Source: Candidatus Thorarchaeota archaeon (GTDB lineage: Archaea; Asgardarchaeota; Thorarchaeia; Thorarchaeales; Thorarchaeaceae). Taken from it: 64,000 bases of DNA. The translations under genes and the position numbers were made by a program. Every line of letters begins with the position of its first letter. Position 1 is the stretch's first letter. This document shows positions 3 to 56,325 of this stretch, piece by piece. The stretch covers positions 55,379-119,378 of the forward strand of contig JBHIAE010000003.1 of assembly GCA_046758445.1 (NCBI GenBank). Direction: 5' to 3'. Below the pieces are notes generated by a model. The model was given only the letters and a program-made list of their open reading frames with translations. It was not told the DNA's origin and ran no database searches.

Positions 3-281
3 ATGGGCGTCAAAGCCGCCGGTGGGATTCGAACCTTCAAGGATGCAATCAAGATGATCGAGGCCGGGGCCGATCGACTAGGCACAAGCGCAGGTATTGC
101 AATTGTTGAAGACTACCGATGGGCCCAGTATAGCGACTCTTGGATGCAACCGGATAGACCCTGCTGGGACTGTCCAAGTCGTCAGGCAAATCTCGCTAAG
201 CAGCCCAAGGAAGTGTATGTCTGGTACAAACAGCGGTGCTTGATCTGTCCTGACCGAGATGAGAATGTGTTTAATGACTAG
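3..281 (+). CDS. deoC: Deoxyribose-phosphate aldolase, C-terminal fragment (5' truncated by window) with Cys-rich tail
   Basis: [10 protein letters not shown]...AGADRLGTS is the DeoC C-terminal signature; followed by a CWDC...CLIC extension. Confidence 0.88.
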
Positions 282-293
282 GAGGGGAGATGA

Positions 294-2084
294 TTGACAG
301 AGTCACCGCAACCATATTCTGATGCAGAGATTCTCAGTGTTTCATTGACAAAGGGGAAGATAAACAGAGAGTCCATCTCATCTGACCTTTATTTCGAGTA
401 CCTGGGAGGCCGTGGACTGGGTGTAAAACTTCTATATGACAATCTTGCCCCGAAGACTGACCCGCTTTCGCCAGCAAATTGGCTGATCTTCGCTGTAGGT
501 CCTCTCACCGCCACTACTGTACCCACCGCCGGTAGATTCGTAGTTGTCACGAAGTCACCTCTCACGGGCACCATATTTGATTCACATGCTGGAGGTTACC
601 TTGGTGCTCAATTGCGCCGAGCAGGCTTTGCTGCAGTAGTCTTCCACGGTGCCTCATCGTCACCTGTGTATCTCTGGATCGATAACGATGAGATGGAGCT
701 CAGGGATGCTTCGAAAGTTTGGGGCAGGAATGTCGAGGAGACCACAGATCAGCTCTTGAAGGAGACCGACTCAAAGGCTCAGGTAGCTTGCATTGGACCC
801 GCGGGAGAGAACCGTATCAACCTCGCCGCCATTATGACAGACAAACACAGAGCGGCGGGACGTGGGGGTGTCGGCGCCGTGATGGGGTCGAAGAACCTTA
901 AGGCGGTCGTTGTAAGAGGCACAAGGCAAGTTGGTGTCAATGAACCCGACCGACTGAAAGAGGCTGTCAAGAGGGCTCGTCGACTGATTAAGAAGAACTC
1001 TGTTACTGACAAGTCGCTCCCCATATATGGAACAGCAGTGCTAGTGAATGTCGCCAATGAGTTTGGTATGTTGCCGACCTACAACTTCCAAGAGGGGACA
1101 TTCAATGACGCGGTAGGAGTGTCAGGAGAGAAGCTACTTGAGAGGCTCTCTGTTCGAACCTACAATTGCTTTGGTTGTCCCATAGGTTGTGGACGAATCA
1201 GTCGGGCAGAGGGCAGAGAAGTCGGAGGTCCTGAATACGAAACAATATGGGCGTTTGGTCCGCAGTGCGGCATAAACGACCTAGAATGGATTGCGGCAGT
1301 GAATCACCACTGTAACCTCTTGGGGATTGATACAATCTCAGCGGGGAGCACAATAGGCTGTGCCATGGAACTGGTGCAGAAGGGCAATCTTGATGCACCG
1401 CTCCATTTCGGAAACACGGAGGGCATCATTGAACTGATTCAAGACATGGCTCACGCTCGCGGGCTTGGCGGAGAGCTTGGAGAGGGTAGTCGAGCGTTCG
1501 CATCCAGGTATGGTGCTCCGGAGCTCGCAATGCATGTGAAGGGACTTGAGATTCCAGCCTATGATCCTCGCGGTGCACAAGGACATGCTCTTGGCTATGG
1601 CACCTCCAATAGAGGAGGCTGCCACCTACGGTCCTACCTAATTGGCCCGGAGATACTGGGCAGTCCTGTGCGGGTTGACCGCGATAGACCTGAAGGTAAG
1701 GCTGACCTTGTGATTCTATACCAGAACCTCTCTGCGGCCATGGACTCAATGGTCCTGTGCCGATTCACCAACTTCGCATGGACTGTCGATGACTATGCCG
1801 AGATGTTGGCTGCTGCCACAGGTCTCTCAACAAGCGGGCGGGACATCCTGAAGATAGGGGAGCGCATCTGGAACATTGAACGTCTCTTCAACAATCGTGA
1901 GGGTCTGACAGCTAAGGATGACCAACTGCCACCGAGGTTCCTCTCGCCTCTTCCTGAAGGCAATTCGCGGAACCGTGTTGTCCACATGAATGAGATGCTC
2001 ACGGAATACTACAGACTCAGAAACTGGGACCAAGACGGCCGTCCTACCAAGAAACGTCTCAAGAGTCTCAATCTTGTCAGTTGA
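294..2084 (+). CDS. aor: Tungsten-dependent aldehyde:ferredoxin oxidoreductase family protein
   Basis: YLGGRGLG, KSPLTG, IGPAGEN, AAGRGGVGAVMGSKNLKAV, CxxCPIGC, GPEYET, RGGCH motifs. Confidence 0.93.
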   Translation: MTESPQPYSDAEILSVSLTKGKINRESISSDLYFEYLGGRGLGVKLLYDNLAPKTDPLSPANWLIFAVGPLTATTVPTAGRFVVVTKSPLTGTIFDSHAGGYLGAQLRRAGFAAVVFHGASSSPVYLWIDNDEMELRDASKVWGRNVEETTDQLLKETDSKAQVACIGPAGENRINLAAIMTDKHRAAGRGGVGAVMGSKNLKAVVVRGTRQVGVNEPDRLKEAVKRARRLIKKNSVTDKSLPIYGTAVLVNVANEFGMLPTYNFQEGTFNDAVGVSGEKLLERLSVRTYNCFGCPIGCGRISRAEGREVGGPEYETIWAFGPQCGINDLEWIAAVNHHCNLLGIDTISAGSTIGCAMELVQKGNLDAPLHFGNTEGIIELIQDMAHARGLGGELGEGSRAFASRYGAPELAMHVKGLEIPAYDPRGAQGHALGYGTSNRGGCHLRSYLIGPEILGSPVRVDRDRPEGKADLVILYQNLSAAMDSMVLCRFTNFAWTVDDYAEMLAAATGLSTSGRDILKIGERIWNIERLFNNREGLTAKDDQLPPRFLSPLPEGNSRNRVVHMNEMLTEYYRLRNWDQDGRPTKKRLKSLNLVS

Positions 2085-13622: not shown

Positions 13623-14435
13623 GTGCTTCTCGAAGGAAGGCACCCTGAGTTGAAACGACTGGACAGAGAGCATGAGCGGATTCTCTCTGAGCTCGACCGC
13701 CGTAAGATGAAGCGGCGGAAGGACTCAGATGAGTTCAAGGTTGTTGAGGGCGTGATTGACCCGCCGACGCTCAAAGCACTCTACAGGCTACTAAACAAAG
13801 GAGTCATCAATGCAGTACATGGCACCATCAGCACAGGGAAAGAGGCAAATGTCTATCGAGGAGAAGACCTTGATGGACAGCCGGTAGCAATCAAAATCTA
13901 TCGGGTTTCTACTGCAGAAACTGACTTCATGCTCGAGTACATCGTGGGTGATCCAAGATTCAGACGTATCAAGAGGCGAAGTAGAGCACTGATACCTCAG
14001 TGGACACTCAAAGAATACAAGAATCTCACACGATATCATGATGCGGGAGTACGCGTTCCCAAGCCAATAGCCGTCGACCGAAATGTACTGGTCATGGAGT
14101 TCATAGGTGATGCAAAGACTGCTGCTGCGCCTCTCATGAAGACAGTAGAGGTGCCGTCACCCGTGAAAGTCTTCAATCAACTCATTGAGATGGTTCAGAT
14201 TGGTTACAACAAGGCAGGCCTTGTTCACGCTGACCTGAGTGAGTATAACGTACTGTGGTTCAAGGGACCTGTGATAATTGACGTTTCTCAGGCCGTACTC
14301 ACGACCCATGACAACGCTAAACGGTATCTGATTCGTGACATCCAGAACCTAGCAAGCTTCTTCCGGAAGCTAGGAGTGGAGCCGGCGAATCCTGAAGAGA
14401 TTGCCGAACACATATTGTCCTCTGGTGAAGAATAG
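13623..14435 (+). CDS. rio1: RIO1 serine/threonine kinase
   Basis: ISTGKEANVY, AIKIYR, LVHADLSEYN, IIDVSQAV. Confidence 0.95.
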   Translation: MLLEGRHPELKRLDREHERILSELDRRKMKRRKDSDEFKVVEGVIDPPTLKALYRLLNKGVINAVHGTISTGKEANVYRGEDLDGQPVAIKIYRVSTAETDFMLEYIVGDPRFRRIKRRSRALIPQWTLKEYKNLTRYHDAGVRVPKPIAVDRNVLVMEFIGDAKTAAAPLMKTVEVPSPVKVFNQLIEMVQIGYNKAGLVHADLSEYNVLWFKGPVIIDVSQAVLTTHDNAKRYLIRDIQNLASFFRKLGVEPANPEEIAEHILSSGEE

Positions 14436-15056: not shown

Positions 15057-16583
15057 TTGGCTAAGATGAACAGGACTCACAAGTCAGAAGAAGACTTTCG
15101 AGGAATCTCACCGGCAGAGTTCTTCTATAGAAATCGTCAGATGGCAGGCTTTGGAAATCCTACCCAGTCAGTGTACTCAACAGTCAGAGAGCTAGTTGAG
15201 AACAGCCTAGATGCCTGCGAAGATGCTCAACAACTCCCGAGAATACGGGTCTGTATTCAGTCCCATCGATCCAATATACTCACAGTGAGTGTTTCCGACA
15301 ATGGAGCAGGAGTTCCATATGCGCACGTTCCGGAGGCCTTTGGTCGAGTTCTCTATGGTAGCAAGTTCGGGCATAAACAGAAGCGTGGTACTTTTGGTCT
15401 AGGGGTCACAATGGCTATCCTCCATGGACAGATCACAACTGATGAACCTGTTTCGGTTCACACTCGAACAACGGAAGGTCCGGGTATGATCTTCCGAATT
15501 CTCATTGACGTCGAAAGAAACACTCCCATTGTCGAAAATAAAGAAGTATTGAGAAGGAGGGAGCAAGGCACCACCGTGACTGTCAAGTTAAGAGGTGACT
15601 TGAAGCGCGCTCAGGAGAGAGTAGAGGAGTATCTTAGACTGACGACTGTGGTATCCCCGCATGCTCAGATCGCACTCGTGATCGACGATTCATCAAGCAA
15701 GGTCATGGGCGGGTTTGTCGACACAGTCCCTGAAATGCCAGTCCCAACTAGACCGCACCCTAGGGCCGCAGATCTGGAGCTGCTTCGCCGACTCATTGAG
15801 AGTAGCAGGCCTAAGGGGCTTCGGGACTTCTTGATTGATTCCTTTCAGCAATTGGGAACTAGAACTGCAACCCGACTCCTCGGGTTTCTAGCAATGGACC
15901 AAAGCATTCAAGTTAAGACGATGGAACGCGAAGACATCTCTCGACTAGGTGCGGGACTTCGTAGATTCGACGGTTTTAGTAGTCCTAGTGGTAAGAGTCT
16001 GAGTCCCATCGGGAAGGATGCTTTTCTCAAGTCGGTGGCAGCTACCTTCAATACGAAAATGCTTAGCTATACACACAGTGCGACTTGTGAATGGGGCGGC
16101 AACGCCTTTGGAATTGAGGGAGTAGTGGCATTGGGTGATGATTTTCCCTCGGCAGACATACCAACGCTCTACCGATTCGCCAATCGTGTGCCTCTTCTTT
16201 ATGACGCAAGCGAGGACATCCTGTCCAAGGTGCTAAGACAGGTCAACTGGTCGAGGTACGGTAGAACAGGCCCGAAACCCGTTGCATTATTCATCCACTT
16301 CTTCTCCACGAAGGTACCATACAAGGCAGCAGGAAAGCAGGCTATCGCCCAGACATCTCAGATTGAAGAAGCGGCTCTGGCGGTCTACCGCAGACTGGGA
16401 CGTTCTCTGAGCAAATCCATCAAGAAACACAATCGTTCCCTACGGGACACCAAGAGGATTAGGGAGTTCTCCGAATTGTTTCGATTGGTGGCTAAGTATG
16501 GATCAGCCCTGGCAGAATCGGAAACAGTCCCTTCTACCGCCAAGATGGTGAAGATCCTTTTCGAGGCGAGTGATGATGTCTGA
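15057..16583 (+). CDS. top6B: DNA topoisomerase VI subunit B
   Basis: SPAEFF, ELVENSLDA, DNGAG, GSKF, RFANRVPLLYD, NWSRYG, KVPYKAAGKQAI. Confidence 0.93.
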   Translation: MAKMNRTHKSEEDFRGISPAEFFYRNRQMAGFGNPTQSVYSTVRELVENSLDACEDAQQLPRIRVCIQSHRSNILTVSVSDNGAGVPYAHVPEAFGRVLYGSKFGHKQKRGTFGLGVTMAILHGQITTDEPVSVHTRTTEGPGMIFRILIDVERNTPIVENKEVLRRREQGTTVTVKLRGDLKRAQERVEEYLRLTTVVSPHAQIALVIDDSSSKVMGGFVDTVPEMPVPTRPHPRAADLELLRRLIESSRPKGLRDFLIDSFQQLGTRTATRLLGFLAMDQSIQVKTMEREDISRLGAGLRRFDGFSSPSGKSLSPIGKDAFLKSVAATFNTKMLSYTHSATCEWGGNAFGIEGVVALGDDFPSADIPTLYRFANRVPLLYDASEDILSKVLRQVNWSRYGRTGPKPVALFIHFFSTKVPYKAAGKQAIAQTSQIEEAALAVYRRLGRSLSKSIKKHNRSLRDTKRIREFSELFRLVAKYGSALAESETVPSTAKMVKILFEASDDV

Positions 16584-17625
16584 GAGAAGCGGAGTAGACA
16601 TTCTAACAACTGTGGGGAGGGAGATAGTCAATGCAATCCAACGAGGCGAGTTTCCGACTCTGAATCTACCCGACAGAGGGACCACAAATATCCTCTATGA
16701 CCCTAATCTCGACCAGTTCATCCTTGGGAGTTCCCAAGTGAAGCGTGACTCCAGCAATCTCAAACACGTTCGGAGTTTTGCACAACTCGTCTGGGTTGCT
16801 CATTTCGCCAAGCAGCTTCTTCAGGCAAAACGTACCAGCTCACTTCGAGACCTATACTACTCAAGTGAGGCATTTGGTGTGGAGTTCAGCAATCAGACAG
16901 AATCAGATAGAACGATCGTTGACCTTGAGTGCTTGACTGGTCTGTCGAGGGAGGCTCTTGGCATATTTCCTGAGGAGCACTCATCGATCTTCGGAAGCAT
17001 GACAATGCAGTATACCGTTCCCGGCTATGAGGGCAAACAAGTGGATCTTACAATGAGTCCAGATGGTCTACCTGTGGGCCGCGCTCTCACGACCGCTCAG
17101 CCTCTGAGAACGGATGCGGAGGTCATACTGGCCGTAGAATCAGGTGGCATGTTCTCTCGGTTGATAGAAACCATGGCATGGGAAAGATACAAAGCTGTAC
17201 TGGTGCAGTTGGGAGGACAACCTCCGAGATCCACCCGGGCCCTGATGAGAAGAATCCACGAAGATCTCGGTCTTCCTGTCTTCATATTTACCGATGGAGA
17301 CCCTTGGGGAATGCACATTGCACAGGTGGTAATCAGCGGCAGCGCAAATTCCGCTCATGTAAAGGGACTGACGATTCCCTCTGCTAAATGGATTGGTGTG
17401 ACTCCAAATGACATAGTTGAACACGCACTGCCTTCAGAACCCATGACCGATGCGGATCTCAAACGCTTGGACGAGCTAGCTCGGGATGTTCGCTATTCCA
17501 ACAGAGAATGGCAGGAACACATCAAGCAGTTTCGGCGGCTTCAAAAGAAAGCGGAGCAGCAAGCCTTCAGTAGACACGGAATGGACTACGTTGTCGACAC
17601 CTATTTGTCAGACAAGCTGGCGTAA
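16570..17625 (+). CDS. top6A: DNA topoisomerase VI subunit A (Spo11 family)
   Basis: LRDLYY catalytic Tyr, VESGGMF, TDGDPWG toprim, KAEQQA. Confidence 0.95.
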   Translation: MMMSERSGVDILTTVGREIVNAIQRGEFPTLNLPDRGTTNILYDPNLDQFILGSSQVKRDSSNLKHVRSFAQLVWVAHFAKQLLQAKRTSSLRDLYYSSEAFGVEFSNQTESDRTIVDLECLTGLSREALGIFPEEHSSIFGSMTMQYTVPGYEGKQVDLTMSPDGLPVGRALTTAQPLRTDAEVILAVESGGMFSRLIETMAWERYKAVLVQLGGQPPRSTRALMRRIHEDLGLPVFIFTDGDPWGMHIAQVVISGSANSAHVKGLTIPSAKWIGVTPNDIVEHALPSEPMTDADLKRLDELARDVRYSNREWQEHIKQFRRLQKKAEQQAFSRHGMDYVVDTYLSDKLA

Positions 17626-17626
17626 T

Positions 17627-18655
17627 TCAGAGACCAAGCAGCTGAAACACCAAAAGAAGAGCAACGGCCCCATACGCAATAACCGCCTGAAGTAACACCA
17701 ACAGATTCACGTTCTTCTTCTCTGTCACGTTCTTTGAGAGGTGGGGTAATATCCAGTAGATTGTGTACGGTCCCGCAACCTCCAAAGTACCGTCTTCTCT
17801 TGGTCCTGCGAACTTCCTGTACTCACCACGGGTGCGGTTGATGCGTACCTTGTAAAAGATGTAGAGCAGAAAGTTCAGCCCGAAGGGCAGATACAGGAGG
17901 ACTGCAAGTCTGTCCATATTGCCGAGTATCAATGCAGCAGCTATTGCTGCTCCCATAGGCAACCTCCCGACGTCACCCGGCAGAATCCTTGCTGGATATC
18001 TATTGAACAATAGAAACCCGATTGATGCACCCATTAGCGCTCCGGCAACAACCCCAGCATCTACCTGGGTCTGGGGAATGGCGACACCTGCTGTGAGCGG
18101 CAGCAACACCACATACAGAACTGCTGCTGAGGAGTTTACTGCCGAGAGGCCGGCCTCTAGACCATTCATCCCTCCATACATGTTGGTAGAGTCAATGATG
18201 AACGTCATCATCAGTGGCACAATTACAAGCGGGTAGAGAATTCCCAGGTCAACCGTGCCTAAGAAAGGGATTGACATGGTTGTCGTGCCAACTTGCATCA
18301 CTATCATTGGTATTGATGCTATCATCGGGAGGGCTATCTTGGTTCGATTCCTGAAATCTAGGCTATCGTCTAGGAGTCCTATTATCGCTGCCATTAGAAT
18401 AGAAACCATTGCCGCCAAGAGTCCGGGGTTCACAATGTCTTGGGCCTGGAACGTTGTTAGCCCAATCACAATCAGAAGAGAGGTGACAATTGCGAAGAGA
18501 ACCACGATGCCTCCGCCCTTTGCAACCTCTGGCCTATCCTTCTTGTGGACATCAATGCCTACAAACCCCTTCTGTTTCAGGGTTTCTATCATAGATGGAA
18601 GTACTAGCACCACGATTAGAAACGCAAGTACTATGGCAATCAGAATAGCTAGCAA
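17627..18655 (-). CDS. UDP-GlcNAc:dolichyl-phosphate GlcNAc-1-phosphotransferase (AglH/Alg7/DPAGT1, MraY family)
   Basis: GIDVHK..RPEVAKGGG, IGLLDD, NMYGGMNGLEAG, FNRYPARILPGDVG; about 10 TM. Confidence 0.88.
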   Translation of the reverse strand: MLAILIAIVLAFLIVVLVLPSMIETLKQKGFVGIDVHKKDRPEVAKGGGIVVLFAIVTSLLIVIGLTTFQAQDIVNPGLLAAMVSILMAAIIGLLDDSLDFRNRTKIALPMIASIPMIVMQVGTTTMSIPFLGTVDLGILYPLVIVPLMMTFIIDSTNMYGGMNGLEAGLSAVNSSAAVLYVVLLPLTAGVAIPQTQVDAGVVAGALMGASIGFLLFNRYPARILPGDVGRLPMGAAIAAALILGNMDRLAVLLYLPFGLNFLLYIFYKVRINRTRGEYRKFAGPREDGTLEVAGPYTIYWILPHLSKNVTEKKNVNLLVLLQAVIAYGAVALLLVFQLLGL

Positions 18656-18840
18656 TCGTTTCTATTCTCCTATTGAGCGTTTCACAATCACCCTGTTTAA
18701 CACTTTTTGGATGTATGCCGCTTCGTGCATGCTTTCAACCTACGAAACCTATTTAACGAATCCAGAGGTTCGACCGCATCGTTCGCGGTCAGACTAGAGC
18801 ATATCTTATCGCGAACCCCAGCGATTCACGGTGATTCGTA

Positions 18841-21837
18841 TTGAGCCTGCTGCATAGACGAATAGCGACATTCGCAATACTGGCGTTGTTTCTCGTAGGC
18901 AGTGCTATGACAGCGGTTCCATTGGCAGCACACTGGGACTCTGAAGTGGCATACGACATAACGCAGCAGTCGACCATGGCAGATTCCACAAGCAATCTCA
19001 CAGTTCCATATGTGGATAAGCACTACGGGGCCGCTGATGGCATAATCGATCCATTTGAATATGCAATAAACTTCACGGATCCCGTGACTGGCATTACGGC
19101 CTATCTTGAACATAATGGCACCACACTCTTCCTAGGACTATCCGCCCCTACTTCGGGTTGGATTGCAGTCGGATGGCAGAACTACACCGATAGGTTCACT
19201 GTGGCCGGGCTGAATCAGAGTGATCTTCTATTCGGTTATGCTCCAGGTACACCGCATGAGGATTACTGGAGGGCCAGAGATGACGACGCTGGAACAGTCC
19301 ACTATGTATTGACAAGCCGCAATGGCAGTCTATTACAAGAGGGCGACTTTCCTACAGACGATATGGATGATCCATTCTCTGTAATGCCTGCACTTGCCAT
19401 GTACAGAAACATGGTTCTCGCGGGCGGTGGCATGCGACTAGGTGAAGTGCGCCATTTCATCATCCCCGCCGAAGAGGCCTATGCCTTTGACCCCACACAT
19501 CAACTCTATGGTCTGGATCTAGAGTACACAACTACACTAACCAGGCTAAAGAGAGGCGCATCAGTCCTAAGAAGCAATACGAGCAATCCTGCCAGATCAA
19601 GCCAGGTGGTGTTCAGCGACCAGAGAGGTGTCGGCACACTTCAACATCTCCCGGATGGTGATCAGAGTCGAATACTGTCTGCGAATGCCACTGATGACGG
19701 GGAAACGACTCAGCTTGAGTATGTACTCCAAATGATCAGTGGAGATCCCGAGGATATATCGATTCTAAATGGTACCGACCAAGTGTATCCATTCGTATTC
19801 TTGTACAGCAACACAGAAGACTTCGGCGAGTTGCCTGTGCAGTATACTTACTGGTCTGGTCCCATAATGATGCAGTTCGAACCCAATGCTGCACCAACAT
19901 TGTTGGTCGAGAGTCCAACCTCAGTAGACCCACTAGTCTGGGTGGACGAGTTCAAGGTAAATGTCACAGACAACACCTTTGTTAGAAGAGTGGACTACAG
20001 AGTTGACAATGAGAACTGGACGGAGATGGAGTTCGATTTCATATCCGGCCTTTGGGAATACCGTGTAGATCTTTCAGGCTACGCCGAGGGTCCGCACACT
20101 GTTTGGTTTAGCGGAACGGATCCGTCAAATTCGAGCAGAGTGATTTATGTCAATGTAACAATCACACGTCCATACACTCCATATCTTGGTATGAAGCTTG
20201 ATGTGGAAAGAGCCTATAGGACCGAAGGGTATCACACTGCACAGGTGAATGATCGATATACAATCACCAATAATGGTTCAGCGGCCATTGGAGCACTGGA
20301 AGTATTCCTTCCACTGGAATACGTGTACAATGTCCTCTCCCTTACGGCAGTGGACTCTCAGGGTAATGAGATTAAGGTCACCAGACTTCAGGACCAAGGA
20401 GGCATGATGCATTGGCGACTGCATCTCTATGAACCTGTAGACTATGGACAGACCTATGATTTCACCGCCACCATGCGAATGCACGGTCTCGATGTCATGA
20501 CGGACTCAGACACCAAAGAATTCGACTTGAAGTTCTTGAAGTACCCGGTTCTTCCCTATCCGATAACCAGTGCCTCCTTTCGCCTGATCCTCAGAACAGG
20601 TGACTCTCTCGCACCAAATTACGAAAGTCCTGATACAACAATGGACAATCTGGCTCCGTTTGCCATAGAGGAGTTCGCAACCGCTTTTCGGTCCTTCTCT
20701 CCATTCATTGTAGCAGACCGCACTACAACTGTGACCGTTGATCCATGGGGCTGGCTATCATTTAGCGAAACCATCTGGTTGCACAATATTGGGCCATTTG
20801 GGACTCCTGAGGACAAGGTTTCCTTTATCCTGCCTGCGTATTCCACAGGGGTAAGAATCTTTGACCGAGTTGGCATTTTGGCCAAATCGCAGTTCTCTCT
20901 TTCCGGGGAGTGGAATGTTTCAAGAGTTGTTGAGATCGATCTGCTGGGTGACCGGTTCGGTGAACAGCTACGGGAAGGATACTCTTACGAGTTCAACATC
21001 GACTACTTGGTTCCAATCAGTGAATATGAGCAGCTTGCAGAAGGCGCCAATCTCTTGAAGCTACCCATGGGCAGCGTTCAGGAAATTGTTGCACTATCAC
21101 ACACAGTCGACCTAGTCCTGCCCTATTCTGTGGATACATTTGAGGCCTATGGCAGCTACAGGCTTCTATATGGTGTGTTTGATACGACCCTCCGATACCA
21201 GTTCGCCAACACTTCCGAGTACAATCCGGCGGAAATCCAGATTCTCTATCGGCCATCACCAATCGTCTTTGTGCGACCTCTAGCCTTTGCTCTCATAGTG
21301 GGTCTCATTGCCCTCGCATACATCGCCTACAAAGGAGTCGATACTGGCCTCAGGCCAGAGGACCTGGAAGATGGTGAGATGCCGACAGCTGACAAGCGGC
21401 AGGTTGGTGCACCACCCAATCTGCTCAAGGACTTTGCTAATCTCTACTCTAAGAAGACTGCCCTTAGCATGGATCTGGAAAAGCTCGAGGCCGCAAGAAG
21501 AAGAGGTAAGGTCAAGAAGAGAGAGTTCATGATACGTGAGCGTGACATAAAGTCGCAGCTTGAACAGATTGACTCTGAGCTGCCCTCACTCAAGAATGAT
21601 CTTGGCGGGTACGGTACAAGGTATAGGGACATGATCTCCCAGATCGAGCTTCAGAATGAAAGGATTGAGGGTGCCAAGGCGGGTCTTCGTCAGTTGCTCT
21701 TACGAAAGAAGAAGCAGAGAATCAGTCGTGTGGCTTTTGAGAGGTCTCGTCAGGACTACCTGAAGACTATCCAGAAGGCCACGACAGCTATCGATCGAAT
21801 CCTGCTCTCAATTCAGGAGGAAGCCGGTGAGATCTAG
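18841..21837 (+). CDS. Ribophorin I (Ost1)-like type I membrane protein with N-terminal DOMON-like domain containing an FKBP insert, plus an Ig-like domain
   Basis: Signal peptide; GWIAVGW..SDLLFGY (DOMON); VHYVL..GMRLGEVRHFIIPAEEAY..HQLYG (FKBP); RTTTVTVDPWGWLSFSETIWLHNIG (ribophorin I-like); single TM after RPL; helical cytoplasmic tail; many NxS/T sequons. Confidence 0.75.
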   Translation: MSLLHRRIATFAILALFLVGSAMTAVPLAAHWDSEVAYDITQQSTMADSTSNLTVPYVDKHYGAADGIIDPFEYAINFTDPVTGITAYLEHNGTTLFLGLSAPTSGWIAVGWQNYTDRFTVAGLNQSDLLFGYAPGTPHEDYWRARDDDAGTVHYVLTSRNGSLLQEGDFPTDDMDDPFSVMPALAMYRNMVLAGGGMRLGEVRHFIIPAEEAYAFDPTHQLYGLDLEYTTTLTRLKRGASVLRSNTSNPARSSQVVFSDQRGVGTLQHLPDGDQSRILSANATDDGETTQLEYVLQMISGDPEDISILNGTDQVYPFVFLYSNTEDFGELPVQYTYWSGPIMMQFEPNAAPTLLVESPTSVDPLVWVDEFKVNVTDNTFVRRVDYRVDNENWTEMEFDFISGLWEYRVDLSGYAEGPHTVWFSGTDPSNSSRVIYVNVTITRPYTPYLGMKLDVERAYRTEGYHTAQVNDRYTITNNGSAAIGALEVFLPLEYVYNVLSLTAVDSQGNEIKVTRLQDQGGMMHWRLHLYEPVDYGQTYDFTATMRMHGLDVMTDSDTKEFDLKFLKYPVLPYPITSASFRLILRTGDSLAPNYESPDTTMDNLAPFAIEEFATAFRSFSPFIVADRTTTVTVDPWGWLSFSETIWLHNIGPFGTPEDKVSFILPAYSTGVRIFDRVGILAKSQFSLSGEWNVSRVVEIDLLGDRFGEQLREGYSYEFNIDYLVPISEYEQLAEGANLLKLPMGSVQEIVALSHTVDLVLPYSVDTFEAYGSYRLLYGVFDTTLRYQFANTSEYNPAEIQILYRPSPIVFVRPLAFALIVGLIALAYIAYKGVDTGLRPEDLEDGEMPTADKRQVGAPPNLLKDFANLYSKKTALSMDLEKLEAARRRGKVKKREFMIRERDIKSQLEQIDSELPSLKNDLGGYGTRYRDMISQIELQNERIEGAKAGLRQLLLRKKKQRISRVAFERSRQDYLKTIQKATTAIDRILLSIQEEAGEI

Positions 21838-21882: not shown

Positions 21883-22758
21883 GTGAATTTCCCCCTTGGG
21901 GGCGTAGATATGAATAAGTTCCTGAATCGTGATGAAGTCAGCGCTCGTGATTTGCTCAGCCCCAATACGAAGGCACTGCAGATGTATCAGTATCTTGCAG
22001 GGTCTCCGAAGGTGCAGTCTTATCTCCGAACAGCGAATAGGATGGCGGTTTCTAGGCTTGGCTATACTGATCATGGGCCGGTACATGCCGAGGTGGCGAC
22101 TTGGAACGCCCTAAGGATATTCGACATCTTGGATGAAACATTTCAACCCAACGTAGTTGCTGAAGGCATCGGTGATACAGATGACGCTCGCCTTGTCGTA
22201 TTAGCCTCCACGTACATCCACGACATGGGCATGGTGGTCCATAGGAACGAGCATCCGCAGGCCTCATTGGCATTGGCCATCCCGATATTAGAGCCAAAGC
22301 TGACCGAGATCTATGATGACCCCGCCAAGGCAACTGACATCATGAGCTTCATTCTCCATGGAATCTATGCCCATGATGATGACACGCAGTGTTTAACTTT
22401 TGAGGCGGGAATCACAAAGCTTGGCGACGGATGTGACCTCACCAAGGGTCGAACGATTATTCCATTCCAGAAGGGCAAGGTCGACATACACTCTGTTAGC
22501 GCCATGGCTATCCACGAGATAATCCTCGAAAAGGGAGAAGACACTCCGCTTAGGATAACGGTTGCAATGGATAACCCAGCAGGAGTCTTCCAAGTTCAGG
22601 CAGTTCTGGAGAAGAAGATATCGACTTCAGGACTAAGAGACCACATCGGCATCGATGTTCTGGTAAATGGCAGTCGTCTTGTGCTGACTCAAGTCAAAAG
22701 ACTGTTCAGAGTCCATCTTGAAGACTCGCCTGATGCGATCAGCGTGAAGGAGAAGTAG
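21883..22758 (+). CDS. HD-domain metal-dependent phosphohydrolase
   Basis: RLGYTDHGPVH, IHDMG, HD, DGCD, DIHSVSA. Confidence 0.88.
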   Translation: MNFPLGGVDMNKFLNRDEVSARDLLSPNTKALQMYQYLAGSPKVQSYLRTANRMAVSRLGYTDHGPVHAEVATWNALRIFDILDETFQPNVVAEGIGDTDDARLVVLASTYIHDMGMVVHRNEHPQASLALAIPILEPKLTEIYDDPAKATDIMSFILHGIYAHDDDTQCLTFEAGITKLGDGCDLTKGRTIIPFQKGKVDIHSVSAMAIHEIILEKGEDTPLRITVAMDNPAGVFQVQAVLEKKISTSGLRDHIGIDVLVNGSRLVLTQVKRLFRVHLEDSPDAISVKEK

Positions 22759-54312: not shown

Positions 54313-56325
54313 ATGGAGTCCTTAGAACATAATGGCATCATAGTTCTCAAACCCCCAGAACCACAACGCTTTGAGATAGCTGTCCGGGGTGAACGAACAA
54401 TCCTCAACGGGCTCCAAGAGGAGATGGCTTTTGCTTGGGTGAGGAAACTTGGAACCCCACATGTTGAGGATCCCGTCTTCATAAAGAACTTCATGACTGA
54501 TTTCAGTAAAGCTTTGAAGGTAAGACCTCGCCTGGATCTTGAGGAAGTCAACTTCTCTTCGATAATAGACTTCGTTGAAGAAGAGAGAGCTGCCAAGGAA
54601 TCCATGACCAAGGAGGAGAAGAAAGCGGCAAGAGAGGCGAGAAAGGCTGAACGTGAACGCCTGAAAGAGGAGTTTGGCTACGCCTATGTCGACGGAGAAA
54701 GAATGGAACTTGGCAACTATCAGACAGAGCCATCGGGAATATTCATGGGTCGGGGACAACACCCTCTCAGGGGCCGATGGAAGCAAGGTGCGAAGGAGAA
54801 AGATATCACTCTGAATCTGAGCCCTGATGCGGAGATTCCGGAGGGGGACTGGGCCAAGATTGAATGGGCATCTGATAGTATGTGGATTGCCAAATGGACT
54901 GATGAGCTTACCAACAGCACGAAGTACATCTGGCTTCACGACAGCACCCCCATCAAGCAGGCGCGTGAGGCTGCGAAGTTTGACACCGCTATGAAAGTGG
55001 CCAAGAATCTAGATTCTATTCGGGCACACATAATGGACGGCATTCATTCCGAGAAGCCCAGGAGAAGGATGCTTGCAACAGCATGTTACCTGATAGATAT
55101 GTTGAACCTTAGGGTGGGTGACGAGAAAGATCCAGATGAGGCTGACACTGTTGGTGCAACCACTCTAAGGGTAGAGCATCTGACCTTCAGGAGGGCTTCA
55201 GTTGTCTTCGACTTTCTAGGCAAGGACAGTGTTGCATGGCATAAGGAAATTGAATTACCATCCGACGTGTACGACACGCTCCACGAGCTCTACGAGAACG
55301 CACTTGAAAGAGTCGAGTCCTACGAGTCAAGAAGGCGTAGGACGACCCACTCTGATTCCAAGAAACCAGCACAAATCTTCCCAAGCATAGGGAGTGGTCA
55401 CGTCAACCGTTTCTTGAGCGAGGTCGACAAGAATCTGACCGCAAAGGTCTTCAGAACCTTCCATGCCACGTTGACAATGCAGGATGAGCTCGCAAAGAGA
55501 AAGACAAGACGTGCTGACCCGGACTTTGTGAAGAAGGAGGCTGTCAAACGGGCTAACCTAGAGGTCGCAAGAGTGATGAACCACACCAAGCAGGCCCCAA
55601 AGGGCTGGCCTCGCACTACCGAACGTTACCAGGAGAGAATCAAGAAGGCGGATGAACGAATCAAGAGGGCTGAGTCTGTTCTCAGGGAAAAGAAAAAGCG
55701 ACTAAGGACAATCAAGAAGAAAGAGAAAGACAGTTTCCAAAAGCGTCAGGCAACTGTTTCGAAACAGAAGGAGATTGTTGAGAGGAACAAGCAATCAGTT
55801 GCAGCTTGGCGTGAGAAACGTAATCGTGCGAAGATCACTTGGGACAATGCACGGGAAAAGAGGCGACGAACCCGAACGAGCAGGCGTAGGGGTAAGACTA
55901 CCAAGAAGCAACGCATGGAAGATGCACGGGCCCGCATAGAACGAACCAGAGAGCGTCTGGACAAGGCCGAGAGTGGCCTTGCCGTTGCAAGAACGAGGTA
56001 CAACAAGAGCAGAGCATCATTGGAGAAGAAACAGCAGTCACTTGCAGAGCTCAGAGAGAAGTCTGCTGCCCGAGTCACTCGTGTTGAGAAGATTGTGAAG
56101 ACTGCTGCTGAGCGTGTCAAGAAGGCAAAGCTTGCGAAGAAGAAGATAGAAACAGACTTTACACTGGCTAGGGACTGCCGTATCTGGAATCTGGGTACGT
56201 CTCTCAAGTCGTATGTTCATCCAAAGATAGTCTACAAGTGGTGCCGCAAGGTTGAGTATCCCTGGCGGAAGGTGTATCCAAAGACCTTGCAGAGGAAGTT
56301 TGCCTGGGTTGAGGAAACATTATAG
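54313..56325 (+). CDS. Eukaryote-type DNA topoisomerase IB with long basic coiled-coil linker
   Basis: SLEHNG, EPSGIFMGRGQHPLRG, LRVGDEKD, ADTVG, DFLGKDS, TAKVFRT, MNH, LGTSLKSYVHP (R-K-R-H-Y pentad). Confidence 0.95.
   Translation: MESLEHNGIIVLKPPEPQRFEIAVRGERTILNGLQEEMAFAWVRKLGTPHVEDPVFIKNFMTDFSKALKVRPRLDLEEVNFSSIIDFVEEERAAKESMTKEEKKAAREARKAERERLKEEFGYAYVDGERMELGNYQTEPSGIFMGRGQHPLRGRWKQGAKEKDITLNLSPDAEIPEGDWAKIEWASDSMWIAKWTDELTNSTKYIWLHDSTPIKQAREAAKFDTAMKVAKNLDSIRAHIMDGIHSEKPRRRMLATACYLIDMLNLRVGDEKDPDEADTVGATTLRVEHLTFRRASVVFDFLGKDSVAWHKEIELPSDVYDTLHELYENALERVESYESRRRRTTHSDSKKPAQIFPSIGSGHVNRFLSEVDKNLTAKVFRTFHATLTMQDELAKRKTRRADPDFVKKEAVKRANLEVARVMNHTKQAPKGWPRTTERYQERIKKADERIKRAESVLREKKKRLRTIKKKEKDSFQKRQATVSKQKEIVERNKQSVAAWREKRNRAKITWDNAREKRRRTRTSRRRGKTTKKQRMEDARARIERTRERLDKAESGLAVARTRYNKSRASLEKKQQSLAELREKSAARVTRVEKIVKTAAERVKKAKLAKKKIETDFTLARDCRIWNLGTSLKSYVHPKIVYKWCRKVEYPWRKVYPKTLQRKFAWVEETL

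Follow-up and report, generated by a model that had tools for sequence, protein, structure and literature searches.

Ribophorin I (OST1) is the accessory subunit that docks the ribosome to the machinery of protein N-glycosylation, and Asgard archaeal Ost1 belongs to the 'eukaryotic signature' parts of the translocon. In human cells, the jobs of Ost1 and of FKBP folding helpers are divided among separate proteins. Ribosome-bound translocons containing oligosaccharyltransferase A (OST-A) are bound by FKBP11 (PMC12804085), and malectin binds ribophorin I (PMC9144812). In the Asgard archaeon 'Ca. Prometheoarchaeum syntrophicum' MK-D1, the cytoplasmic domain of OST1 (8WHN) is a four-helix bundle, topologically like its human RPN1 counterpart, that pulls down ribosomes (PMC11417166). 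Here we describe an Ost1 gene from a Candidatus Thorarchaeota archaeon of the order Thorarchaeales (assembly GCA_046758445.1, contig JBHIAE010000003.1, forward-strand positions 55,379 to 119,378; this 64,000-nucleotide stretch is hereafter the window, in which all positions are numbered from its first letter). The gene (18841..21837, + strand) encodes a 998-residue type I membrane protein, in which Ost1/ribophorin I carries an N-terminal extension comprising a DOMON domain with an FKBP domain inserted into it, followed by an immunoglobulin (Ig)-like domain. This assignment draws on the open reading frame (ORF), full-length homologues and the presence of a single copy in the genome. An earlier reading of the window from its letters alone (the original prediction) had proposed this architecture and noted that Ost1 homologues are reported in Asgard archaea; the latter are indeed known from the literature, e.g. 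MK-D1 OST1 (PMC11417166), and what appears to be new is the DOMON/FKBP/Ig extension.

The gene is a single ORF that starts with TTG and runs without interruption for 998 codons. An alternative database call for the same ORF gives 976 residues (P0002) and would lack the signal sequence; the longer form is preferred because homologues align with the ORF from residue ~4 and retain the hydrophobic signal sequence. The signal peptide (residues ~1-30, 18841..18930), read from the translation and conserved in homologues, has a basic RR n-region, a 16-residue hydrophobic core and an AxA-like end, where cleavage would be expected. It is followed in order by the FKBP-split DOMON sandwich, the Ig domain, the lumenal region, a transmembrane (TM) helix and a cytosolic helical tail, and each of the 16 N-x-S/T sequons in the protein is extracytoplasmic. 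A Pfam/NCBIfam scan of the window protein alone returned only a weak, sub-threshold Big_7 match (E 0.007) and no other family; this copy is too diverged to reach any Pfam threshold, so that its domains are recognized only via homologues, profiles and structure. Pfam was applied domain by domain to 53-54 homologues that are 50-86% identical to the window protein, in two sub-alignments. Structures were modeled by AlphaFold2 (AF2) with the family alignment, and folds were compared by Foldseek and by VIA, which reports Z scores. Full-length relatives of 930-1001 residues number more than 120, most of them from metagenome-assembled genomes (MAGs) labelled Thorarchaeota. Their automatic database names include 'FKBP-type peptidyl-prolyl cis-trans isomerase', 'Ig-like domain-containing protein' and 'hypothetical'; the present finding corrects these names, behind which the Ost1 identity is hidden at present. 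Overall, the proposed architecture is backed in full by profile comparisons, predicted structures and fold matches, from the signal peptide through the FKBP-in-DOMON and Ig modules to the Ost1 portion with its TM helix and helical tail.

Sequence and model comparisons show that the protein from residue ~450 to its end is a complete, collinear Ost1, with a two-lobed domain, a TM helix and a bundle of the ribosome-binding type. The extracytoplasmic ('lumenal') two-lobed β-sandwich spans residues 451-805 (20191..21255), as supported by Foldseek, VIA and Pfam matches in homologues. It leads into a single TM helix at residues 808-833 (21262..21339), which corresponds to AF2 helix 464-489 of the model of residues 345-840 (pLDDT 89.2) and aligns with the RPN1 TM helix. 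Human RPN1 and yeast Ost1 account for all of the top eight Foldseek matches of this model (E 1.5e-22 to 5.6e-16, the next match being at 1e-10), with best values of 1.5e-22 for RPN1 (8b6l_O) and 2e-18 for yeast Ost1 (6ezn_A). VIA likewise aligned ~375 residues with RPN1/Ost1 at Z 21.5-25.1, the next fold scoring Z 13.5; the alignment at Z 25.1 pairs 381 residues, from model positions 103..496, with RPN1 28..465. The Pfam family Ribophorin_I (PF04597) was detected in 22/54 homologues (best E 9e-11), with no match for the window copy alone. Phmmer matched residues 444-993 to canonical Asgard Ost1 proteins of ~570 residues with E values down to 3e-35, and one of these (P0140) itself scores E 6e-17 against Ribophorin_I.

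The cytoplasmic tail (residues 841-998, 21361..21834) is homologous, by phmmer and profile comparison, to the ribosome-binding four-helix bundle of Ost1/RPN1. Residues 841-989 match the MK-D1 structure (8whn_A) at E 5e-6 with a single sequence in phmmer and at E 5e-8 with the family profile; 8WHN is the one solved structure that the single-sequence search of the window protein matched. No part of the protein is more conserved than this tail, in which invariant columns are dense between residues 857 and 996. The proposals of a ribophorin I-like region, one TM helix and a helical cytoplasmic tail thus all held, and we infer that the Thorarchaeal Ost1 is a member of the OST complex.

The extension comprises ~400 residues and lies on the outer side of the membrane. 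The sandwich that opens it is divided into an N-terminal half at residues 52-135 (18994..19245), which reads 'GLN' where the haem-binding 'GMN' stands, and a C-terminal half at residues 257-346 (19609..19878); both halves were assigned from AF2, VIA and alignment. VIA matches that extend across the insert into both halves (model 12..311) identify the fold as DOMON, led by ethylbenzene dehydrogenase (EBDH) gamma (2ivf_C, Z 15.9, 168 aligned), with further members of the superfamily in NxrC (7b04_C, Z 15.1), the dopamine β-hydroxylase (DBH) DOMON (4zel_B, Z 13.8) and the cellobiose dehydrogenase (CDH) cytochrome (1d7c_A, Z 12.3); CBM9 (1i82_A) also resembles the sandwich at Z 11.9, a likeness of fold only. 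Pfam DOMON (PF03351) was found in 17/53 homologues (best E 4e-6), the window copy alone giving no match. The window protein does match two DOMON proteins: P0164 at E 5e-21, itself scoring E 3e-16 against PF03351, and P0209 at E 4.5e-15, itself scoring E 9e-28. Uninterrupted archaeal DOMONs align collinearly with it at 26-34% identity, and against these the FKBP stands out as a single clean insertion, ~120 residues long, within the hairpin that follows the 'IGY' strand. These data recover the split DOMON that had been read from the sequence. The Atlas fold search found DOMON clusters at TM 0.77 by target; in this incomplete search, DOMON and FKBP clusters were each present separately and none combined both.

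The haem ligands of DOMON domains had been described as not evident, and the family alignment bears this out. The haem-Met column of the 'GMN' motif holds Leu in 48 and Ile in six of the 54 sequences and Met in none, and the haem-His column (335) holds His in 44, Arg in eight, Gln in one and Tyr in one, the last being the window copy. Judged from these columns, haem binding by this DOMON is effectively excluded. The sugar-binding role that had been proposed instead is a conjecture founded on the loss of the haem Met, a loss that does not imply sugar binding; the DOMON may simply be a scaffold.

The insert itself is a short-type FKBP, lacking the IF flap insert, at residues ~141-244 within the DOMON β-hairpin loop (19261..19572, close to the ~19270-19550 first proposed), as judged from the profile, Pfam matches in homologues and the predicted fold. 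Searched against PDB sequences, the family profile matches human FKBP2/FKBP13 with an E value of 2e-5, the match covering the whole FKBP domain (profile positions 147-236), and Pfam FKBP_C was matched at E <= 0.01 in 50/53 homologues (best 3.6e-12). The predicted structure of the insert (model 102-202) is an FKBP fold by VIA, which aligned it with SlyD (Z 11.8, root-mean-square deviation [rmsd] 1.9, 85 aligned), FKBP13 (Z 11.1, rmsd 2.3, 93 aligned) and translocon-bound FKBP11 (Z 10.5), and by Foldseek, with TM values by target of 0.67-0.76 against FKBPs. AF2 modeled residues 40-352 with pLDDT 89.1 and pTM 0.84, the latter of which suggests that DOMON and FKBP form a rigid unit.

Pocket positions were mapped through the FKBP2 profile alignment and are given with FKBP12 numbering. 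Y26 (Y155) and Y82 (Y214) are present in 54/54 copies. F99 corresponds to Y229, with Tyr again in 54/54 copies, W59 to Y188, with Tyr in 53/54, and H87 is retained (H220) in 46/54. F36 is replaced by Leu/Ile at position 165, and D37 by Gln (44 copies) or Glu (10 copies) at position 166. The GMRxGE motif is invariant among the inserts in the 54-sequence alignment, and the copy from the sister family retains the canonical 'FDTS' and scores E 2e-13 against FKBP_C. A largely conserved peptide-binding pocket is well supported by the alignment. A whole-genome scan with Pfam FKBP_C left the Ost1 insert undetected; the sole other match in the genome (G000:C26:32519-32773, L013) lies in a 284-residue ORF, presumably the usual cytoplasmic archaeal FKBP.

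Between the DOMON and the Ost1 portion lies the predicted Ig-like (Big_7) spacer (residues 353-441, 19897..20163), assigned from Pfam and from its AF2 β-sandwich. Beyond the weak match of the window copy noted above, Big_7 was detected in 30/54 homologues (best E 6.8e-10), and the Ig-like domain of 6tn6 matches the spacer at Z 12.8 by VIA, in keeping with the Ig-like module originally proposed.

Each half of the protein was searched against its own genome, which is 92.7% complete, and the sole match of either was the protein itself; no second, canonical Ost1 was found with these queries. The gene is the sole Ost1/ribophorin I orthologue of its genome. To map the distribution of the fusion, 201 genomes of the phylum Asgardarchaeota were surveyed. 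The full-length fused form, aligning over query residues 1-998 in a single open frame, is found in all 43 genomes of the window's family, representing 16 genera, and in the one genome sampled of a sister family in the same order (32% identity). In the other 25 Asgard families sampled, either there was no match or proteins matched from residue ~440 onward only, as canonical Ost1 of ~600 residues; an exhaustive HMMER search likewise aligned ordinary Asgard Ost1 proteins of 550-630 residues to residues ~440-998. On this sampling, the fusion is a fixed, derived, order-specific accretion. Since it is restricted to one order, and neither the other sampled Asgard families nor RPN1/Ost1 possess the extension, the fused protein is derived and analogous to the eukaryotic arrangement. 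The suggestion that it is a one-polypeptide precursor of glycoprotein quality control in the endoplasmic reticulum (ER) is thereby rejected. Two full-length fused Ost1 homologues (P0023 and P0057, 50-58% identity) carry the NCBI labels 'Candidatus Hodarchaeota' and 'Candidatus Sifarchaeia'. The GTDB-based survey confines the fusion to one order, and such labels may stem from contamination or from imprecise taxonomy of the MAGs.

Occasionally, the DOMON(FKBP)-Ig module occurs with a different C-terminal half, in which a second Ig-like domain and a Ser/Thr-rich linker lead to a terminal TM anchor. These stand-alone members are encoded at L014:6129-7889 (P0133, from a MAG labelled Lokiarchaeota), L015:2542-4260 (P0128, Thorarchaeota) and G179:C23:20710-21900, and further include P0132 and P0131; they are rare, occurring in one of the 44 genomes of the order. 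No Ost1, AglB or agl/glycosylation genes were adjacent to the stand-alone genes. A Rosetta-stone test hence adds no extra support for coupling to glycosylation, and the module can evidently work without Ost1. In a quick tree with long branches and a midpoint root, the stand-alone forms nest inside the Ost1 N-modules of the family, which tentatively suggests that they are secondary partial duplications rather than the donor of the module.

Upstream of the Ost1 gene, and divergent from it across a spacer of 185 bp up to 18841, lies aglH (17627..18655, - strand), which encodes a Glycos_transf_4 protein (PF00953, Pfam E 2e-28), predicted to be the AglH/Alg7-type GlcNAc-1-P transferase that catalyzes the first step of lipid-linked glycan synthesis. 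Directly downstream is an ORF of 291 residues (21883-22758, + strand), with 77-86% identity at the same position in five related genomes and no Pfam family at E <= 10. Five other genomes, from two genera, share the order top6A - aglH - Ost1 - 291-residue ORF (L005-L009). STT3/AglB (a 927-residue ORF; G000:C20:7761-8990, L001) is encoded on another contig of the genome, with an Ost3/Ost6-like ORF of 190 residues (G000:C20:13026-13346, L010) ~4 kb away on the same strand, and this pair may constitute a second small N-glycosylation locus. Further neighbors of the Ost1 gene are ordinary housekeeping genes on the + strand, encoding a RIO1-type kinase (13623-14435) and topoisomerase VI subunits B (15057-16583) and A (16570-17625), the latter two overlapping by 14 bp. 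An ORF of 180 residues (18255-18797, + strand) that is antisense to the 5' part of aglH has no family match and is most likely spurious.

These data suggest a model in which the protein acts as a foldase or holdase that is anchored at the translocon and the OST, a role that we consider likely from the combined analyses. Like the tails of MK-D1 OST1 and human RPN1, the Ost1 tail would dock a translating ribosome at a SecYEG-AglB(STT3)-Ost3/6 translocon in the cytoplasmic membrane, while the Ig spacer would hold the rigid DOMON-FKBP unit over the channel exit. There, the FKBP pocket would bind unfolded segments of emerging, newly N-glycosylated chains and probably isomerize their prolyl bonds, with the DOMON as a scaffold or perhaps a second ligand-binding, possibly glycan-binding, surface. 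Such an arm would be a covalent counterpart of the non-covalent eukaryotic assemblies, FKBP11 at OST-A and malectin on RPN1, having arisen independently in the order. The essentials of this model, i.e. a ribosome-docking tail, an FKBP pocket that binds nascent glycosylated chains and an independent origin within the order, are in our judgment probably correct. Peptidyl-prolyl isomerase (PPIase) activity and functional coupling to N-glycosylation are plausible, given the conserved pocket, the sole Ost1 of the genome and aglH as a conserved divergent neighbor. We advance more tentatively the fuller version, in which the Thorarchaeales would possess a hard-wired co-translocational 'glycosylate-and-fold' station whose OST subunit carries an active prolyl isomerase/holdase and possibly a glycan-sensing DOMON, acting at the SecYEG/AglB exit.

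Several observations weigh against this model. In the fused-Ost1 FKBPs of the window's family, F36 and D37 are replaced as described above. The window's subclade, the most diverged lineage in the FKBP, has further changes in this domain, namely an 'AGG' insertion before GMR and V151G. Scanned alone against FKBP_C, the window insert scores 15.8 bits (E 0.018), below the cut-off of 21.1. Taken together, these features indicate that FKBP catalysis may be weakened or lost. The nominal catalytic site of FKBP11 is moreover buried, and the authors of that work argue against isomerase action on nascent chains (PMC12804085). Finally, DOMON-FKBP-Ig-Ig-TM proteins exist apart from glycosylation genes. 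The principal rival to our model is accordingly that the FKBP, at the same location, is a non-catalytic adaptor or structural domain whose pocket binds a fixed partner, be it part of Ost1/AglB itself or some other component of the translocon or the S-layer, thereby tuning OST assembly or substrate access. The precedent for this is FKBP11 at human OST-A, which acts as an adaptor with its ligand site buried by CCDC134 (PMC12804085). The two pocket substitutions and the sub-threshold Pfam score fit such a role, as does the AF2 model, in which the strand equivalent to FKBP12 residues 46-49 appears as a loop. Most pocket aromatics are invariant across order-level divergence, at 32-50% identity, which fits a working peptide-binding pocket, but this invariance would fit a fixed partner equally well. 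We regard the adaptor reading as rather unlikely.

Alternatively, the DOMON-FKBP-Ig module might be a general surface foldase or ligand-binding device that is unrelated to N-glycosylation or the translocon, with Ost1 as a mere membrane anchor. The occurrence of the module with another C-terminal half in P0128, P0132 and P0133, away from glycosylation genes, is what such a device would predict, but the fusion is found in every sampled genome of the order, with no unfused Ost1 left, and the stand-alone forms, in their single genome of 44, nest within the Ost1 N-modules in the tentative tree; we consider this reading improbable. A redox role is far more so: although the nearest structures, EBDH gamma, NxrC and the CDH cytochrome, are haem-b DOMON relatives and the His column is His in 44/54 homologues, an extracytoplasmic electron-transfer device that binds haem b would have to do so with Leu or Ile in place of the Met ligand in 54/54 copies and, at the His column, with Tyr in the window copy and Arg in eight others. 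The haem-binding DOMON was rejected on the missing Met. The slightest chance of all attaches to a chimeric assembly or mis-called fusion of adjacent genes, for which the unusual length of the protein is the only argument; the same single stop-free frame is present here and in 44 independent assemblies, as well as in the more than 120 metagenomic proteins of similar length, and this conservation of the fused frame refutes an artefact.

The foldase/holdase model that we prefer is relevant to archaeal translocon biology and to N-glycosylation. The gene fusion of Ost1 with a foldase domain argues that Ost1 acts where the translocon ends, on nascent chains that are still unfolded, and that folding helpers coupled to the OST can evolve outside eukaryotes. 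It thereby bears on the debate as to how much of the logic of ER-type proteostasis arose before, or in parallel to, eukaryogenesis. If the hard-wired station proves true, it would be an independent archaeal invention of a translocon-coupled glycoprotein folding aid, for which the eukaryotic ER is the only other known setting (FKBP11, malectin-RPN1). The soluble module (residues ~45-350) is tractable for PPIase, chaperone and ligand-binding assays. The claim that the architecture is undescribed has stood: no published description of a DOMON/FKBP/Ig extension on Ost1 was found in the literature searched, in which subscription journals are thinly covered.

Among the closest known systems is the 607-residue OST1 of MK-D1, which is homologous end to end with residues ~440-998. 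Canonical Asgard Ost1 begins right after its signal peptide, without the DOMON, FKBP and Ig extension. Human RPN1 (8B6L chain O, 6S7O chain E) and yeast Ost1 (6EZN chain A, 7OCI chain A) have folds collinear with residues 447-840, but share only 13-19% identity with the Thorarchaeal protein and lack its N-terminal module. One of the nearest functional parallels is FKBP11 at the human ribosome-SEC61-OST-A complex (9N9J/9YGY; PMC12804085), where an FKBP domain, matched by the insert at the Z of 10.5 given above, is likewise placed on the extracytoplasmic (lumenal) side of an OST translocon. FKBP11, however, is a separate recruited protein that contacts the ribosome through its own basic C-terminal helix, whereas the Thorarchaeal protein is predicted to do so through the Ost1 tail; Asgard lineages nearer to eukaryotes lack the fusion, and the likeness is one of functional analogy. 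In animals and plants, the malectin-ribophorin I complex (PMC9144812) similarly places an accessory lumenal β-sandwich on ribophorin I and is linked to glycoprotein quality control. Malectin nonetheless has another fold, associates non-covalently and has proven glycan binding, which for the Thorarchaeal DOMON is a conjecture. With the DOMON superfamily (2IVF_C, 7B04_C, 4ZEL, 1D7C, 1I82), the Thorarchaeal domain has the β-sandwich fold in common, but it lacks the haem Met and accommodates an entire FKBP domain in a hairpin loop. That FKBP has the same fold as FKBP2/FKBP13 (2PBC/4NNR) and as SlyD without its IF domain (4ODQ/4ODR), and shares with them Y26, Y82 and GMxxGE, while differing in F36 to Leu/Ile, D37 to Gln/Glu, W59 to Tyr and F99 to Tyr. 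In SlyD the FKBP hosts an insert, whereas in the Thorarchaeal protein the FKBP is itself nested within another domain.

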